Translations under genes and position numbers: made by a program
The notes under the pieces: model-generated
What the model was told of the DNA's origin: nothing
What the model saw: the letters and a program-made list of their open reading frames with translations, nothing else
The model's database searches: none
Virus record (IMG/VR): IMGVR_UViG_3300027963_004416
Location: 64,001-128,000 of that record
From: a virus
DNA length: 64,000 nucleotides
Strand: one strand, 5' to 3'
Shown: positions 52,848 to 57,800 of the stretch, piece by piece
Numbering within the stretch: the stretch's first letter is position 1
Layout of the letters: each line of letters opens with the position of its first letter

Positions 52848-54797
52848 ATGAAAATATTTGTGATAAATTTAGAAGCCAGGCCTGATCGCCTGGCTTTTAT
52901 GTCTGAGCAGCTTAAAGATGTTGAATGGCAAAGACATTCAGCGCTGAATGGCCATAGTTTAACTATGGATGCAATCGTTCAATTAGATTTCGCACCATAC
53001 AGCAAATGGATTGATCCTCTTCTAGATAGAAAATTAACCAATACGGAAATAGCAGCTGCTATCTCTCATTATCAGTTATGGGAAAAGTGTGTTGAGCTTA
53101 ATGAGCCAATTCTTATTTTAGAAGACGACTCACAGCTTGTTGGTGATTTAGATTTAAAAGAACTAGAATTATTAAGTAATGAATATGATATAGTTTATCT
53201 TGATCACAGAGAGATGTTTCCTGACCTATCCGTAGTCGGAGAAAAATTCGTCAGGCCCTTTTATCCCTACTGGAACAATGCATATGTTATTACACCCAGG
53301 CTTGCTCGTTATATTATAAATTCACCCTATAGATACAATATAATACCGGTGGATGAGCTGTTTCCTATTTTAAGCGGAATTGCTTTTAACGATCATTGTC
53401 TAGGTAATAAAGAAATTTTTACTTCACTCCAGGAATTACTTATGACGCTACCAACTAACCCGGTAGCGTACAAAGAGAGTATTTTTAAACAACTACCCAG
53501 AAAAATTATGGGATCTGATATTGAAAGTGGAAGATCGATTATGAATACAGTTCATGTGTTAACAGTGGCAACAGATGAAACAAAACTAAAGTATCTGGAT
53601 ACTTCAGCTCAAAAGTTTGGAATAAAATTTATTAATCTAGGTAAAGATGTCGTATGGGACGGGGGAAACATGATCGGGCCCGGTGGTGGCCAGAAGTTAA
53701 AACTAGTTAAGAACTATGTTAGTCAAATACCAGAGCAGGACATTGTTCTATTCGTAGACGGATATGATGTTTTTTTTAATGACGATCTACAGACAATAGT
53801 CGATCGATTTAATGGATTTGACTGTAAAGTTCTTTTTGCAGGAGAGAAGAATTGCTGGCCAGATAAGTCTATTGCTCCTCTGTTCGACGGTGACACTGAC
53901 TACAAATACTTAAACAGTGGAGTGTATATTGGATACGCAGGTTATGTTTGCTCTCTCATAGAGAATTATATACAAAACTCTGATGATGATCAACTTTATC
54001 TTCAAAAGAAATACATTGTGGATTTATTTGATTCAAAAAAACTGTACAAGATAGATGTCGAGAATTATATATTTCAGTGCTTGGCAGGAGCGGTTGATGC
54101 AGTAACTGTTAAATCAAACGGGCAGTTATTGAATTCTGAAACTAGATGTTGCCCCTGTATACTCCATGGTAACGGTGGCGATTCAGTAAAGAAAGATTTT
54201 GATAGATTATTTAACACAATCTTCAATGAGAGTGACATAGGTATTGAATTTATGACGCCATCTGGCTATGAAATTGTAGGTCCAGAAATTTTAGAAATTG
54301 ATTTACTTACACCAGATATGTGCAAGCAGCTCGTTAATCTTGCCGATAGCCATGGTAAATGGGAGCCTATGAGTGGTGATAAGTTTCCTGCGCAGGAAAT
54401 AAGAATACGAGAAATTGATATTAATCTGTTTAATAAACTAGAACAACATCTTAAAGATAAAGTTTACCCTTTAATAGAGCAATACTGGTTTCCTTTAAGC
54501 ATGTACGGTTTAAGAGATGCCTTTATTATTAAATATACTCCAGAGACACAAGCTAAGCTAAAATGTCACCATGATGCTTCTCTTGTATCCGGTAATGTTA
54601 AACTTAATAGCGAATATACAGGCGGAGATACTTATTTCTACAGGCAGAATTATTCAAACATAAATACATCTGTCGGTAAAATGACTATGTGGCCGGGACA
54701 GGTTACACATGGTCATGAAGGGAGAGAGGTAACCTCTGGTGCAAAATACAATCTAGTAATTTGGACGAGTAGAAGACCTGGAGATATAAACTACTAA
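52848..54797 (+). CDS. Three-domain enzyme: GT25 + PLOD/LH3-type glycosyltransferase + 2OG-Fe(II) lysyl-hydroxylase-like domain
   Basis: GT25: VINL..RPDR, SH..LW, ILEDD; PLOD-GT: TVAT, W.GG...GGGQK, FVDGYD, EKNCWPD, LNSG.YIG, DDDQL; LH: HHDAS, PG..TH.HEG..VT.G..Y. Confidence 0.9.
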   Translation: MKIFVINLEARPDRLAFMSEQLKDVEWQRHSALNGHSLTMDAIVQLDFAPYSKWIDPLLDRKLTNTEIAAAISHYQLWEKCVELNEPILILEDDSQLVGDLDLKELELLSNEYDIVYLDHREMFPDLSVVGEKFVRPFYPYWNNAYVITPRLARYIINSPYRYNIIPVDELFPILSGIAFNDHCLGNKEIFTSLQELLMTLPTNPVAYKESIFKQLPRKIMGSDIESGRSIMNTVHVLTVATDETKLKYLDTSAQKFGIKFINLGKDVVWDGGNMIGPGGGQKLKLVKNYVSQIPEQDIVLFVDGYDVFFNDDLQTIVDRFNGFDCKVLFAGEKNCWPDKSIAPLFDGDTDYKYLNSGVYIGYAGYVCSLIENYIQNSDDDQLYLQKKYIVDLFDSKKLYKIDVENYIFQCLAGAVDAVTVKSNGQLLNSETRCCPCILHGNGGDSVKKDFDRLFNTIFNESDIGIEFMTPSGYEIVGPEILEIDLLTPDMCKQLVNLADSHGKWEPMSGDKFPAQEIRIREIDINLFNKLEQHLKDKVYPLIEQYWFPLSMYGLRDAFIIKYTPETQAKLKCHHDASLVSGNVKLNSEYTGGDTYFYRQNYSNINTSVGKMTMWPGQVTHGHEGREVTSGAKYNLVIWTSRRPGDINY

Positions 54798-54827
54798 GAC
54801 AGTATATACTGTCATTTGCGAGGCCAC

Positions 54828-57800
54828 ATGGCAAATAATACATTTCAAATAAAAAGAACCAGTGTATCTGGTCGTGTTCCTACAAGTGAACAGATTAATA
54901 TCGGTGAGCTAGCTATAAATTTAGCAGACTCTAAACTTTTCTCCAAGGATACGTCAAATAACATTATTACTCTTGCAGACAAGGGTGATAAAGGAAATAC
55001 CGGTAGCAAAGGTGAGATGGGCCCGGCGGGCGATAAAGGAAACAAAGGGGACGCAGGCACTACCGTTGACAAAGGTGACAAAGGTGATACCGGTTCTAAA
55101 GGTGATACCGGCTCAAAGGGTGATACTGGCTCAAAAGGTGATACTGGCTTCACCGGCACTAAAGGTGATAAAGGCGACACCGGAGACAAAGGTAATAAGG
55201 GTGATATTGGTCCTTCTGGGTCTAATGGAACGGCCGGTGATAAAGGCGATACCGGATCAAAGGGTGATAAAGGCGACACTGGCACGACCGGGGATAAGGG
55301 TGATACCGGATTTACCGGGGACAAAGGTGACAAGGGTGATGACGGTCAAAAAGGAGACACCGGCGCAAAGGGTGATGCCGGCACAACAGGCAGTAAAGGT
55401 GATAAAGGCGATACAGGGTCAAAGGGTGATAAAGGCGACACTGGCACGACCGGGGATAAGGGAGATAAGGGAGATACAGGCTCAAAAGGGGAAATCGGCG
55501 ACAAAGGTAATAAAGGAGACACAGGTGCAAAGGGTGATGCCGGTACAACAGGCAGTAAAGGTGATAAAGGCGATACAGGGTCAAAGGGAGACACTGGAAC
55601 TACTGGTGACAAAGGACAGAAAGGTGAATTAGGGCCAGTAGCTGGTAGCAACACGTATGTTATATTCAACGACTCTGATAATTCAAACGCAGTATTATCA
55701 TTTACCTTTGATAAGGTTTCTAATACTGTTAGTGTTGGTAACAGTACAGTAAATACTAATATTATTCCAGGTGGTATTACCATCAATGGTATCAACGTAA
55801 ATACAGCAATTACAGGCAATGCGACAACTGCATATACCAATGCAACCACTTATGCATCTAACGCTACCAATATTACTACAGGAACCCTAGATACAGCCAG
55901 ACTACCAGCTACAGCCAATATATCAACAGCTATAAATGTTGGTGCAAATGTTAACTTATCTACAACATATATCGTTGTTGGTAATACTACTATTAACACT
56001 ATAGTTAATGCTACTGCAGTTAGCATTAATACAAGCACTGCTGGTTCAGGTCAATTTGCAGTAGGTAATACAACAATTAACAGTACAGTTAATTCCACCA
56101 CACTTGCAATTAACGGTACCGGTGCTCAATCAAGGCTCGGCAACTCAACAATTAACACTGTTGCCAATGCTACTACTATTATTATTAATACAAGCACTAC
56201 TGGTTCAGGTCAATTTGCAGTAGGTAATGCAACAATTAACACTGTTGTAAATGCTACTAATATATCGTTGAGCGCTAACCTCGGTGCTAATAGTACTACC
56301 TTATTTACTGGCAATTCAACAGTTAATACATCAGTTAATGCTACTACAGTAAGTATTAATACAAGTACTACCGGTTCAGGGCAGCTTGCAGTTGGTAACG
56401 CAACTATCAACAGTACGGTTAATGCCACTACCCTAGCAATAAATGGCGCCGGTGCTCAGGCAAGACTTGGCAACTCAACAGTAAACACAGTTGCTAACGC
56501 TACATCGTTTAATATTAATAATGGAACTACAGGTACTGGTCAATTCTCAGTAGGAAATTCAACTGTTAATACAGTAGTTGCAGCAGGTTCTATTACTATT
56601 AATGGCACTAACGTTAATACTGCTATTACTGGCAATGCAGCTACTGCTTATACGAATGCCACTAGCTACGCATCTAATGCAGATAATATAACATCAGGTA
56701 CTTTAGTTACTGCAAGATTACCAGCCACAGCTAACATATCAACTGCTTTAAACGTTGGCGCTAATGTTAACTTAACCACTTCTAGTATAAACGTTGGTGA
56801 TGCAACGGTCAATGCTTCAATAAACGCTACAAATATTTCAGTGGCTAATGTATTGACCACCTATATGTCTACTACTAACATGAATATTACTGGCAATCTA
56901 ACTGTTGCAGGTAATGTTGCTATTATCGGAGCTAATAATCTTTCGATAGTAGATAATATGATTTACTTAAATGCTAATAGTATTACTTCAAACCCTGACT
57001 TAGGTTTTGCAGGTAGCTATAATGATGGTACATTTCATCATGCGGGCTTTTTTAGAGATGCCACTGATGGTGTGTGGAAAGTATTTGATAATTACTTGCC
57101 CAACCCAGATGCAAGCCCATTTATTGATACTTCTAATGCAACGTTTAGAATAGCCGATCTCCAAGCCAATACCCTTACCGTAGCAACGATAAACGCTACC
57201 TCCGTTCTTATAGGTAGCGTAAATGTTAACACAGCTATAACCGGTAATGCTGCAACAGCATATACCAATGCTACTAGCTACGCAGATACAAAGGCAGCAA
57301 CCGCGTACACTAATGCTACTAGCTACGCATCCAATGCAGACAATATTACATCAGGAACTTTAGTTACTGCAAGATTACCGGCTACAGCTAACATATCAAC
57401 TGCTTTAAACGTTGGCGCTAATGTTAACTTAACCACTTCTAGTATAAATGTTGGCAATAGTACAGTAAACACAAACATATCGGCAGCGGCTATTACAATT
57501 AACGGCACGAACGTCAACACAGCTATAACAGGTAACGCAGCTACTGCCTATACTAATGCCACATCATATGCGGACACCAAAGCGGCTACTGCTTATACGA
57601 ACGCGACTAGCTATGCCGATACCAAGGCTGCCACTGCTTATACGAACGCGACTAGCTACGCATCTAATGCAGACAATATTACATCAGGAACTTTAGTTAC
57701 TGCCAGACTACCAGCTACTGCTAATATTAGCACTGCCATAAACGTAGGTGCTAACGTTAACTTAACAACGTCAAGTATAAACGTTGGTAATGCTACTGTT

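Follow-up and report, generated by a model that had tools for sequence, protein, structure and literature searches.

Does a bacteriophage hydroxylate and glycosylate the lysines of its own collagen-like tail fibres, and does it do so with a single polypeptide? To our knowledge, animals and giant viruses are so far the only groups in which these modifications of collagen lysine have been demonstrated. The question is raised by a locus in the window (i.e. the whole stretch of 64,000 nucleotides that was analysed), where a gene combining three modules of collagen enzymes lies beside fibres whose collagen lysines all occupy position Y of Gly-X-Y triplets. This combination makes it probable that the phage modifies fibres of its own, and we consider it likely that the enzyme of this T4-like phage is a cytoplasmic, single-polypeptide collagen-lysine modifier.

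Gene and domain organization of the enzyme

The enzyme gene, its domains and the preceding ORF were delimited as follows:

52631..52846, + strand: 71-aa ORF of unknown function, directly before the enzyme gene
52848..54797, + strand: enzyme gene (649 aa, P0001), with a GT25 domain, an LH3-type glycosyltransferase (GT) and a lysyl-hydroxylase-like dioxygenase in this order
52848..53540, + strand: GT25 domain (aa 1-231) like the C-terminal catalytic domain of COLGALT1 (Pfam, phmmer, Foldseek)
53544..54221, + strand: LH3/PLOD-type glycosyltransferase domain PF25342 (aa 233-458; Pfam, 6wfv match)
54270..54794, + strand: lysyl-hydroxylase (LH)-like 2OG/Fe(II) dioxygenase domain (aa 475-649; L230 match, 6ax6)

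The frame from 52848 to 54797 was uninterrupted over all 649 residues. At curated cutoffs, Pfam recognized Glyco_transf_25 (aa 2-170, E 1.2e-21, 77.9 bits against a cutoff of 24) and GT_PLOD (aa 233-458, E 9e-51, 172.9 bits against 27), while 2OG-FeII_Oxy_3 (aa 562-640, E 2e-4, 22.5 bits) stayed under its cutoff of 27. In a PHROG search, phrog_61 covered the full length (E 1.4e-103). The ORF and its three domains had been described in an earlier note on this DNA, and both were confirmed by the ORF check and Pfam; the motifs reported there (TVAT, GGGQK, FVDGYD, EKNCWP, LNSG, DDDQL and HHD...H) were all present in the translation. No signal peptide-like feature was seen at the N-terminus. Since the TGA stop of the 71-aa ORF lies one base before the enzyme ATG, both genes are probably translationally coupled.

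The accessory (AC) domain found between the GT and LH modules of LH3 was absent from the enzyme. Only about 16 residues separate the end of GT_PLOD (aa 458) from the start of the LH-like domain (around aa 475), so by architecture the enzyme is no PLOD orthologue. It likewise lacks the non-catalytic GT domain at the N-terminus of COLGALT1, the match being restricted to COLGALT1 residues ~313-505, i.e. the catalytic lobe. With both domains missing, the architecture of the animal complex is not reproduced.

Sequence and structure similarities

A phmmer search against the PDB returned collagen enzymes only, namely the GT and LH domains of LH3, COLGALT1, and mimivirus R699 and L230. The best sequence match of the dioxygenase was the LH domain of L230 (E 8e-13). 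The AF2 model of the enzyme was confident (pLDDT 89.6) and served as query for Foldseek. Its central GT domain displayed a GT-A fold resembling that of the GT domain of LH3 (6wfv, TM 0.87, rmsd 2.1, 30% identity), and its dioxygenase domain matched the LH domain of L230 (6ax6, TM 0.75, rmsd 2.2). The GT25 domain was nearer to COLGALT1 (9evj, E 6.5e-16) than to a solved beta-1,4-galactosyltransferase (8xkd, E 5e-7), which we take to be a bacterial GT25 enzyme; this ranking counts against a role in LPS synthesis. R699 and R655 were also among the best Foldseek matches per domain. The resemblance to PLOD3/LH3, COLGALT1 and mimivirus L230, R699 and R655 was thus upheld by sequence searches and predicted structure alike.

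Active sites and their conservation

Residue conservation was followed in 33 homologues displaying 41-73% identity with the enzyme. Residues D93/D94, Y141, D169/E170, W270, D304/D307, W337, D380/D381, H440, H574/D576/H623 and K633 were invariant. In the GT25 domain, the equally invariant DxD motif (E92-D93-D94) aligned with the EDD of COLGALT1, as did the YW motif (Y141-W142) and the putative base and amine anchor (D169-E170) with their counterparts; position 142 was Trp in 22/33 homologues and Leu in 9/33. A conserved GSDIE (aa 222-226, D224 invariant) is located about 50 residues past PVDE, a spacing like that of the GLT25D1 lid, and may be an STDE-type lid motif, although it lies outside the HMMER alignment with COLGALT1.

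The LH3-type GT domain carries W270, the DxxD pair D304/D307, W337, D380-D381-Q382 and H440, where W270, D304/D307, W337 and D380/D381 aligned with LH3 W75, D112/D115, W145 and D190/D191. Likewise, the Fe triad H574, D576 and H623 aligned with that of LH3 (H667, D669, H719) and with L230. LH3 and L230 bind 2OG through an Arg that was not conserved here: its position (LH3 R729) is occupied by K633, an invariant Lys throughout the 33 homologues (AKY versus TRY in LH3 and KRY in L230). Lysine fills the 2OG-binding role in prolyl 4-hydroxylases, so dioxygenase function may persist despite this replacement.

Tested residues of GLT25D1 comprise the DxD pair D436/D437, Y494/W495, the catalytic base D522 and the Hyl-amine anchor E523, and a lid loop with an STDE motif touches the donor phosphate (PMC12987934). 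Functional residues of R699 and LH3 are a Mn-binding DXXD, UDP-binding and gating Trp residues and a catalytic poly-Asp (PMC9546862). The active-site residues of the phage enzyme map onto these functionally tested positions of GLT25D1 and R699/LH3. The active sites of the three domains were intact and conserved.

Collagen-like fibres beside the enzyme

The enzyme and fibre genes follow one another closely, all on the same strand:

47970..47977, + strand: TATAAATA motif, 35 bases upstream of the first collagen fibre gene
48012..50144, + strand: second collagen-like fibre (710 aa, P0003), with Gly-Asp/Ser-Lys triplets, Collagen and C-terminal S74 domains
50725..52617, + strand: third fibre-like protein (630 aa, P0288), flanked by the two collagen fibre genes
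54828..59018, + strand: collagen-like tail fibre (1400 aa), with Collagen, Peptidase_S74 and tail-fibre PHROG matches
54984..55640, + strand: collagen segment of the 1400-aa fibre and proposed substrate, 73 triplets if the VDK interruption is counted

They stand behind the sole copy of TATAAATA in the window, where 14.6 would be expected. This motif resembles a T4-type late promoter and, from knowledge of T4, presumably acts as one.

The 1400-aa fibre matched the Collagen profile (PF01391, E 8.7e-31), a C-terminal Peptidase_S74 intramolecular chaperone (E 2e-13, both Pfam) and many tail-fibre PHROGs. Its ORF is open from TTG 54816, the likelier start being ATG 54828 behind GAGG. Its Gly-X-Y triplets form a run of 9 and a run of 63, in the same register and separated by a single Val-for-Gly triplet (VDK). 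The 72 strict triplets contain 35 Lys at Y; with VDK counted, the 73 triplets and 36 Lys at Y given previously were reproduced exactly, as were the absence of Pro at Y and the segment end at base 55640. Lysine was never found at X. The segment contains 29 KGD and 3 KGE motifs and 3 Pro in 72 triplets, Thr being the second commonest residue at Y (24/72), and would be about 63 nm long if triple-helical.

The Gly-X-Lys pattern claimed for the second fibre was recovered as well. Its collagen runs (49080-49115 and 49509-49643) comprise 19 triplets in runs of at least four; Lys occupies Y in 12 of them and X in none (25 triplets and 14 Lys when runs of three are counted). In the collagen runs of both fibres together, 47/47 Lys were at Y and 0 at X. 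P0288 shares an N-terminal 'MAN..QIKR' motif with the 1400-aa fibre; it displayed no collagen repeat and no Pfam or PHROG family match.

Interchain salt bridges stabilise proline-poor collagens, and Lys at Y beside Asp at X, as in the 29 KGD motifs, could reflect such bridges alone.

Association of the enzyme with Lys-at-Y collagens in other viruses

The enzyme family comprised at least 216 clusters at E <1e-30 in a 50%-identity library. Gene neighbourhoods were compared for 24 enzyme clusters (70% identity) from viral contigs, with 79 randomly sampled viral collagen genes as reference. A collagen-like ORF occurred on the enzyme's strand in 22/24 clusters, at 3 kb or less in 21/24 and at 100 bp or less in 7/24. 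The median fraction of Lys at Y was 0.45 in enzyme-linked collagens versus 0.03 in the 79 sampled ones, i.e. 15-fold higher (Mann-Whitney p ~7e-11, a value that overstates independence as the loci are phylogenetically related). Measured against this median of 0.03, the pattern of the present fibres goes well beyond the usual, and the proposed co-occurrence of the gene with Lys-at-Y fibres was found far above chance.

Exceptions were recorded: a collagen near the enzyme in cluster L017 has 1 Lys in 38 triplets, Gln predominates at Y in one group (L022-L038), and collagens with Lys-at-Y fractions of 0.19-0.31 occurred on viral contigs without a detectable enzyme, one of them 91% complete. Distinct lineages displayed the same enzyme-fibre arrangement, which was present in cultured cyanomyoviruses S-CAM9 and S-PRM1 and in Roseobacter phage CRP-6, which carries a tape-measure gene. 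Among bacteria, the Streptomyces kronopolitis chromosome displayed a split version of the enzyme adjoining a collagen gene, and Ilumatobacteraceae chromosomes stand-alone LH-like domains without a collagen neighbour. Alongside Pro-rich collagens, the fusion is joined by extra small P4H-type oxygenases (0.37 versus 0.05 Pro per triplet, cluster level, p 0.006, with the same reservation on independence); they were absent at the present locus, where fibre Pro is rare.

Proposed pathway and alternatives

The LH domain of LH/PLOD enzymes hydroxylates Lys in X-Lys-Gly, an activity that depends on homodimers. By analogy, the C-terminal dioxygenase would hydroxylate Y-position Lys of X-Lys-Gly in unfolded fibre chains, using Fe2+, 2-oxoglutarate and O2. 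The GT25 domain would then add a first sugar to the hydroxyl (beta-galactose from UDP-Gal if it behaves as COLGALT1), and the LH3-type GT domain a second one (alpha-1,2-glucose from UDP-Glc if it behaves as LH3 and R699). The fibres would subsequently trimerise, aided by their C-terminal S74 chaperone domains, into a triple helix about 63 nm long that is poor in proline, rich in Asp and Lys, and bears up to 36 glycosylated hydroxylysines per chain. Activity of the enzyme, the fibres as its substrate, and the kind and order of the sugars are inferred in this way; the benefit for the phage may be helix stability, protection against proteases or shear, or adhesion. On the whole, the first reading of the locus was supported, every check by computation that it had proposed having come out in its favour.

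One part of that reading concerned the sugar supply:

2874..3875, + strand: GalE-like UDP-glucose 4-epimerase (TIGR01179, 259.1 bits against a cutoff of 262.3)

This gene is indeed present in the window, its TIGR01179 score being just under the cutoff. Yet it is located 50 kb upstream of the enzyme, clustered with genes for a GT1 enzyme, an HddA-like kinase and a GmhA-like isomerase. Because of this distance and its heptose-type sugar surroundings, the epimerase is only a possible source of UDP-Gal for the enzyme.

A small but appreciable chance must be left to the fibre lysines being modified into something other than Glc-Gal-Hyl, with different sugars, order or number, or with a GT acting on Thr at Y or another site. 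Donor specificity is unreadable from the enzyme sequences, and the GT25 family also holds glucosyltransferases. Such a product would fit with Thr as second commonest Y residue, with the heptose-type sugar cluster and further GT1 enzyme of the phage, and with mimivirus L230, which puts glucose directly on Hyl (PMC9546862). Against it, the pair of COLGALT-like and LH3-GT-like domains corresponds exactly to the two steps of the pathway in animals, the alignment places D169/E170 on the GLT25D1 residues that serve as catalytic base and anchor of the Hyl amine, and R699, the closest viral GT_PLOD relative tested, only used UDP-Glc on Gal-Hyl (PMC9546862).

It appears improbable that the enzyme targets the LPS or envelope of the host, or some other protein of host or phage (e.g. 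to block superinfection), with Y-position Lys being purely electrostatic. The public name of homologues, 'GR25 family glycosyltransferase involved in LPS biosynthesis', points that way, as do pelagimyophage glycosyltransferases of the fibre region that were read as host O-chain modifiers (PMC7029224), the 29 KGD motifs and the solitary LH-like domains of Ilumatobacteraceae. However, a lysyl-hydroxylase-like domain fused to two GTs would make no sense for LPS, and the GT25 domain is structurally nearer to COLGALT1 than to 8xkd. Same-strand adjacency to collagens in 21/24 clusters, the 15-fold Lys enrichment at Y and the covariation of small oxygenases with collagen Pro content argue in the same direction. 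Highly improbable is a decaying or non-catalytic passenger, such as an enzyme-derived chaperone that binds fibres: although Lys has taken the place of the 2OG-binding Arg and no AC domain is left, none of the examined metal-, donor- and acceptor-site residues varied among the 33 homologues, the most distant of which has 41% identity, the family counts at least 216 clusters, the frame is intact and the model confident. Modification of the phage's own fibre lysines remains our preferred explanation.

Comparison with known systems

Collagen prolyl 4-hydroxylases of PBCV-1 (vCPH) and Bacillus anthracis, whose targets are collagen-like repeats in viruses or bacteria, share the 2OG/Fe(II) DSBH fold but were weaker Foldseek matches (E ~1e-7). 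The residue they modify is proline, and they carry no GT domain, whereas the phage fibres are nearly Pro-free.

Human LH3/PLOD3 and COLGALT1/GLT25D1 (6fxk, 8zgc, 9evj) hydroxylate, galactosylate and glucosylate procollagen Lys. They display the same three catalytic modules and metal or donor motifs as the phage enzyme (Fe triad; DxxD/Trp/poly-Asp; DxD/YW/D-E), and their X-Lys-Gly target context also occurs in its neighbouring collagen. Yet the human system is a hetero-tetramer of two ER proteins, in contrast to one cytoplasmic chain of 649 aa with the order GT25, GT, LH, no LH3 AC or COLGALT1 N-terminal domain, Lys for the 2OG Arg, 17-30% identity and a Pro-poor fibre as proposed substrate.

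Mimivirus L230 (LH and glucosyltransferase), R699 (Gal-Hyl glucosyltransferase) and R655 (GT25-like) are likewise viral and act on viral collagen-like proteins; mimivirus collagen enzymes were active when produced in E. coli (PMC9546862). Three separate proteins share these functions in mimivirus, R699 has retained an accessory domain and the host is eukaryotic, whereas the phage enzyme is fused and much smaller. Longer GT25-GT_PLOD-accessory-2OG fusions (~850-1100 aa) occur on giant-virus-like metagenomic contigs. They have the same N-terminal GT25 and GT_PLOD domains (30-34% identity over aa 1-458) but keep an accessory region (Glyco_tranf_2_4 or OGFOD2-like) before the dioxygenase and sit among genes of large eukaryotic viruses (HSP70, EI24, PIF1, topoisomerase).

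Members of phrog_61 in Synechococcus phages S-CAM9, S-PRM1 and S-8S55 and in CRP-6 belong to the same full-length family (37-40% identity over 95-100%), and the enzyme also adjoins collagen-like fibres there, with 22-26 Lys at Y. In the cyanophages, by contrast, one or two additional small oxygenases of the P4H type separate fibre and enzyme, and the collagens carry Pro at X. The phrog_61 records bear generic or 'hypothetical' names with no function proposed, public records naming the family only '2OG-Fe(II) oxygenase' or 'LPS GT25'. The proposed fused, phage-borne form of the known collagen lysine pathway is new.

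Domain composition of the enzyme

The earlier note had described, from sequence alone, an enzyme ORF with its motifs and two collagen-like fibres, and this observation was correct in every particular. Each of the enzyme motifs it named was found in the translation of the first of the following features.

52848-54797 (+): intact gene of the three-domain enzyme, 649 residues (ORF translation)
54816 (TTG; probable start ATG 54828) to 59018 (+): collagen fibre 2, about 1400 residues, Collagen repeat and Peptidase_S74
54984-55640 (+): collagen segment of fibre 2, aa 57-275 of the ORF at 54816

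Pfam placed Glyco_transf_25 at aa 2-170 (E 1.2e-21), the PLOD glycosyltransferase (GT) domain PF25342 at aa 233-458 (E 9e-51) and, more weakly, 2OG-FeII_Oxy_3 at aa 562-640 (E 2e-4, which falls short of the curated cutoff). PHROG family phrog_61 spans the whole length of the protein, and no NCBIfam model matched it. A phmmer search of all PDB chains returned collagen-modifying enzymes only. Human LH3 (PLOD3) was matched twice, by its GT domain (aa 216-448 of the enzyme) and by its lysyl hydroxylase (LH) domain (aa 479-639), while aa 2-185 corresponded to the catalytic C-terminal lobe of COLGALT1 (GLT25D1); two mimivirus proteins, R699 and L230 (LH domain), were also among the matches. The linker between the GT_PLOD and LH-like domains measures about 16 residues and the LH3 accessory domain is absent, so that this GT25 - GT - LH order constitutes an architecture unlike that of any characterised enzyme. 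Nothing resembling a signal peptide was seen at the N-terminus and the protein is therefore probably soluble in the cytoplasm of the infected cell.

An AlphaFold2 model built with 33 homologues as input reached a mean pLDDT of 89.6, its pTM of 0.53 leaving the relative placement of the domains uncertain. Domain-by-domain Foldseek searches of the PDB matched the LH3 GT domain (6wfv, TM 0.87, rmsd 2.1 A), COLGALT1 (E 6.5e-16) and the L230 LH domain (TM 0.75, rmsd 2.2 A), with R699 and mimivirus R655 likewise present. A beta-1,4-galactosyltransferase (8xkd, presumably from the bacterial GT25 enzymes) and prolyl 4-hydroxylases scored many orders of magnitude more poorly. LH3, COLGALT1 and L230, the relatives against which the earlier note had proposed to compare each domain, were thus recovered by phmmer and Foldseek.

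Active-site conservation

Conservation was examined by aligning 33 homologues that share 41-73% identity with the enzyme. Invariant residues comprise E92-D93-D94, Y141 and D169-E170 in the GT25 domain, W270, D304, D307, W337, D380-D381-Q382 and H440 in the GT_PLOD domain, and H574, D576, H623 and K633 in the LH domain. In HMMER alignments they coincide with residues of GLT25D1 and R699/LH3 whose importance mutagenesis has demonstrated. For GLT25D1 (PMC12987934), these are D436/D437 for donor and Mn, the acceptor pair Y494/W495 ('YW' motif), D522 as catalytic base and E523, which anchors the Hyl amine; for R699/LH3 (PMC9546862), they are the DXXD motif, two Trp (the UDP-binding one and the gating Trp145) and Asp190/191. 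Two departures were recorded: an invariant Lys where LH3 and L230 have the 2OG-binding Arg, and W142, which is Leu in 9 of the 33 homologues.

The collagen fibres

The probable ATG of fibre 2 lies six bases downstream of GAGG, and the protein combines its Collagen-repeat segment with a C-terminal Peptidase_S74 intramolecular chaperone domain. The segment contains 9 + 63 strict Gly-X-Y triplets separated by one VDK triplet; counting the latter yields the 73 triplets and 36 Lys at Y reported earlier. Lys at X and Pro at Y were both absent. The second fibre announced in the earlier note was recovered at 48012-50144 (fibre 1, 710 aa), with the same Gly-Asp/Ser-Lys triplets and 12-14 Lys at Y for none at X. 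A search of the whole contig revealed no collagen-like gene beyond these two.

Proline is scarce in the repeats (3 in 72 triplets, none at Y), and prolyl hydroxylation was rejected on this count as the role of the dioxygenase in this phage. Interchain Lys salt bridges are known to stabilise proline-poor collagens. Since 32 of the 37 Lys-Gly pairs precede Asp or Glu, the fibre lysines probably also take part in such bridges, a role compatible with modification since hydroxylysine keeps its amine.

Genomic context

The viral contig, 145.7 kb long and 85% complete, comes from a T4-like myovirus; the window covers its bases 64001-128000, and baseplate wedge proteins are encoded upstream of the fibre module. 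The gp6-like protein is nearest to those of Sinorhizobium phiM12-type phages and Caulobacter phage Cr30, at merely 36%. Megablast of 10 kb around the enzyme gene found no match among cultured phages, hence a phage without close sequenced relative. Further features are listed below.

2874-3875 (+): GalE-like epimerase, 259.1 bits against a TIGR01179 cutoff of 262.3
2874-6402 (+): sugar-nucleotide cluster (GalE-like epimerase, GT1 glycosyltransferase, HddA-like kinase, GmhA-like isomerase)
12091-12445 (+): tmRNA gene, ARAGORN tag peptide ANDSDYNMALAA; Rfam beta_tmRNA 108 bits, tmRNA_permuted 141 bits
47970-47977 (+): T4 late-promoter octamer TATAAATA, single copy in 64 kb
50725-52617 (+): third fibre-like protein, 630 aa, rich in Ala/Gly/Ser/Thr/Asn/Val, without collagen
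59412-63483 (+): three paralogous ORFs in a row, each about 450 aa, RCC1-repeat beta-propellers (PF25390, PF00415)

The module reads, all on the + strand and with tiny gaps, TATAAATA, fibre 1, two small ORFs, the third fibre-like protein, a 71-aa ORF, the enzyme and fibre 2; the stop of the 71-aa ORF falls one base before the enzyme ATG. The octamer is strongly depleted in the window (1 copy in 64 kb against 14.6 +/- 3.8 expected by chance) and its sole copy lies directly before the fibre 1 gene. By analogy with T4 biology, this layout suggests late co-expression.

The 630-aa protein found no match in Pfam or PHROG. It shares with the fibre starting at 54828 an N-terminal 'MAN..QIKR...GELA' motif, which, judging from sequence, may represent a common attachment module. 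The RCC1-repeat ORFs directly 3' of fibre 2 may encode further host-recognition proteins. With its HddA-like heptose-7-phosphate kinase and GmhA-like sedoheptulose-7-phosphate isomerase, the sugar-nucleotide cluster resembles a heptose pathway, and T4 RNase H comes next after it; the epimerase is possibly tied to the collagen-modification system. The beta_tmRNA match may hint at a betaproteobacterial host.

Enzyme family and linkage to Lys-rich collagens

Within the length range searched, the family amounted to 421 clusters at 90% identity; a 50%-identity library gave at least 216 clusters with E below 1e-30. Scanning viral contigs with a single sequence gave merely 4 weak loci; an alignment-based scan was needed and provided 267 confirmed matches. 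Collagen-like ORFs were sought in the 80 best viral loci, whose enzymes formed 24 clusters at 70% identity. Such an ORF occurred in the locus for 22 of the 24, the remaining two having less than 5 kb of flank. It was always on the same strand as the enzyme, within 3 kb in 21 clusters and within 100 bp in 7. As a control, 80 viral loci were sampled by a codon-blind GGN-repeat pattern, and the enzyme was found near none of them. The median of the highest Lys-at-Y fraction was 0.45 for enzyme clusters against 0.03 for controls (Mann-Whitney p 7e-11, a generous value because the loci are related to one another), and fractions of at least 0.2 were reached by 16/22 and 8/79, respectively. The co-occurrence that the earlier note had proposed to test was observed across these viral loci.

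This pattern is common to fibres of 200 to 2000 residues with Asp, Pro, Ala or Gln at X. Gly-Pro-Lys/Thr fibres of two T4-like cyanophages, S-CAM9 and S-PRM1, show it with 22-23 Lys in 59 triplets; for CRP-6, a Roseobacter phage that carries a tape-measure gene, the count is 26 Lys in 99 triplets. Exceptions are the collagen of one cluster (locus L017), almost without Lys, and those of loci L022-L038, dominated by Gln. Conversely, the enzyme was absent from seven viral records (mostly fragments, 5-63% complete, one 91%) with collagens at 0.19-0.31 Lys at Y, which indicates that it is not required for moderate Lys at Y, nothing more.

One or two small P4H-type 2OG oxygenases stand between fibre and fusion in S-CAM9 (L001, 7839-9004) and in many of loci L009-L088. 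Collagens had a median of 0.37 Pro per triplet where these oxygenases adjoin the fusion (9 clusters) and of 0.05 where the oxygenases are absent, as they are in this window (13 clusters; p 0.006). This suggests that P4H-carrying modules also hydroxylate proline where their collagens have it, and the correlation points in the same direction as the Lys-at-Y linkage.

Proposed mechanism and alternatives

The analysis establishes domain identity, intact sites and genomic linkage, while activity, substrate, sugars, their order and benefit are inferred; it is likely that the enzyme modifies the collagen-like fibre chains by Lys hydroxylation followed by addition of two sugars. It would bind nascent chains in the cytoplasm before trimerisation, and its LH-like domain would convert Y-position Lys in X-Lys-Gly to hydroxylysine. 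The GT25 domain would add the first sugar (by analogy beta-Gal, with D169 as base) and the LH3-type domain the second (alpha-1,2-Glc, to judge from LH3 and R699). Trimerisation, driven by the C-terminal S74 chaperone domain, would then fix the modified chains in a rod about 63 nm long.

The sugars are assigned by analogy, and modification of the fibres with other sugars or in another order has a modest chance. A host envelope or other proteins as target, with Lys at Y merely electrostatic, is distinctly less probable: the Asp or Glu following most Lys-Gly pairs fits an electrostatic role, and the proximity of the enzyme to Lys-at-Y collagens across viral loci argues for the fibres. An LPS role of the GT25 domain was weighed and rejected as the main reading. 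That the gene is an inactive relic is very improbable; the Lys in place of the 2OG-binding Arg departs from LH3 and L230, and the reading frame is intact with its catalytic residues invariant among homologues.

On a wider scale, and with slightly better than even confidence, we propose that several phage lineages modify their tail fibres in the cytoplasm of the bacterium by the full route known from animal collagen lysines, to hydroxylysine and then its two sugars, and that one compact enzyme suffices for this. Phage and giant-virus fusions would then have belonged to the pool that gave animal PLOD and COLGALT, or the reverse, and the enzyme would serve as a one-gene tool for glycosylated hydroxylysine collagen in E. 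coli.

To our knowledge, the literature treats hydroxylysine-linked collagen glycosylation as an animal hallmark, with mimivirus as single viral exception. If active, the family would show that this chemistry is widespread among phages infecting aquatic bacteria, extend the post-translational modifications of tail fibres, the organs of host recognition, by a new type, and offer an alternative reading of the 'LPS glycosyltransferases' and '2OG oxygenases' of marine myovirus fibre regions. It is also relevant to how the animal PLOD/COLGALT system arose. Modified recombinant collagens at present need several poorly expressed human enzymes, and a soluble 649-aa enzyme performing all three steps in bacterial cytoplasm would be attractive. 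The family is widespread and unannotated, and the idea is directly testable in E. coli and in the cultured phages S-CAM9, S-PRM1 and CRP-6, which carry the same module.

Relatives and comparison with known systems

Phage homologues bear the public names 'hypothetical', '2OG-Fe(II) oxygenase' or 'GR25 family glycosyltransferase involved in LPS biosynthesis', and one Tara record is tagged K13647, presumably the KEGG PLOD entry. Our literature search found no paper describing or testing a phage lysyl hydroxylase/glycosyltransferase of this kind. Hydroxylation of bacterial collagen-like proteins was predicted by Iyer et al. 2010 for other dioxygenase families, not for this enzyme (PMC2938197).

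Among chromosomal relatives, Streptomyces kronopolitis (L212, 6957-10573) has a split version directly after a collagen-repeat ORF, in the order collagen-repeat ORF, GT_PLOD + dioxygenase ORF, IS fragment and separate GT25 ORF. In Kaistia terrae (L213, 1-561 and 7935-9269), 7.4 kb separate a GT_PLOD + dioxygenase ORF from a collagen-repeat ORF. Chromosomes of Acidimicrobiia, among them freshwater Ilumatobacteraceae, commonly carry stand-alone LH-like relatives (genome contigs L216-L289; aa 472-646 matched at 36-49% identity), with no collagen-like ORF within 8 kb. Fusion variants include P0124, with an added methyltransferase, and P0125, with two GT25 domains.

Related longer fusions that keep the accessory region (GT25 - GT_PLOD - accessory region - 2OG, about 850-1540 aa; P0168, P0166, P0170, P0249; loci L207, L209) occurred in contigs carrying giant-virus-like genes (HSP70, EI24, PIF1, topoisomerase). 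The phage enzyme would work like animal LH3/COLGALT1 and like the mimivirus L230/R699/R655 set, yet by architecture it is a member of neither: it lacks the LH3 accessory domain and the non-catalytic COLGALT1 lobe, has Lys for the 2OG-binding Arg and, in contrast to both sets, unites all three modules in one chain.
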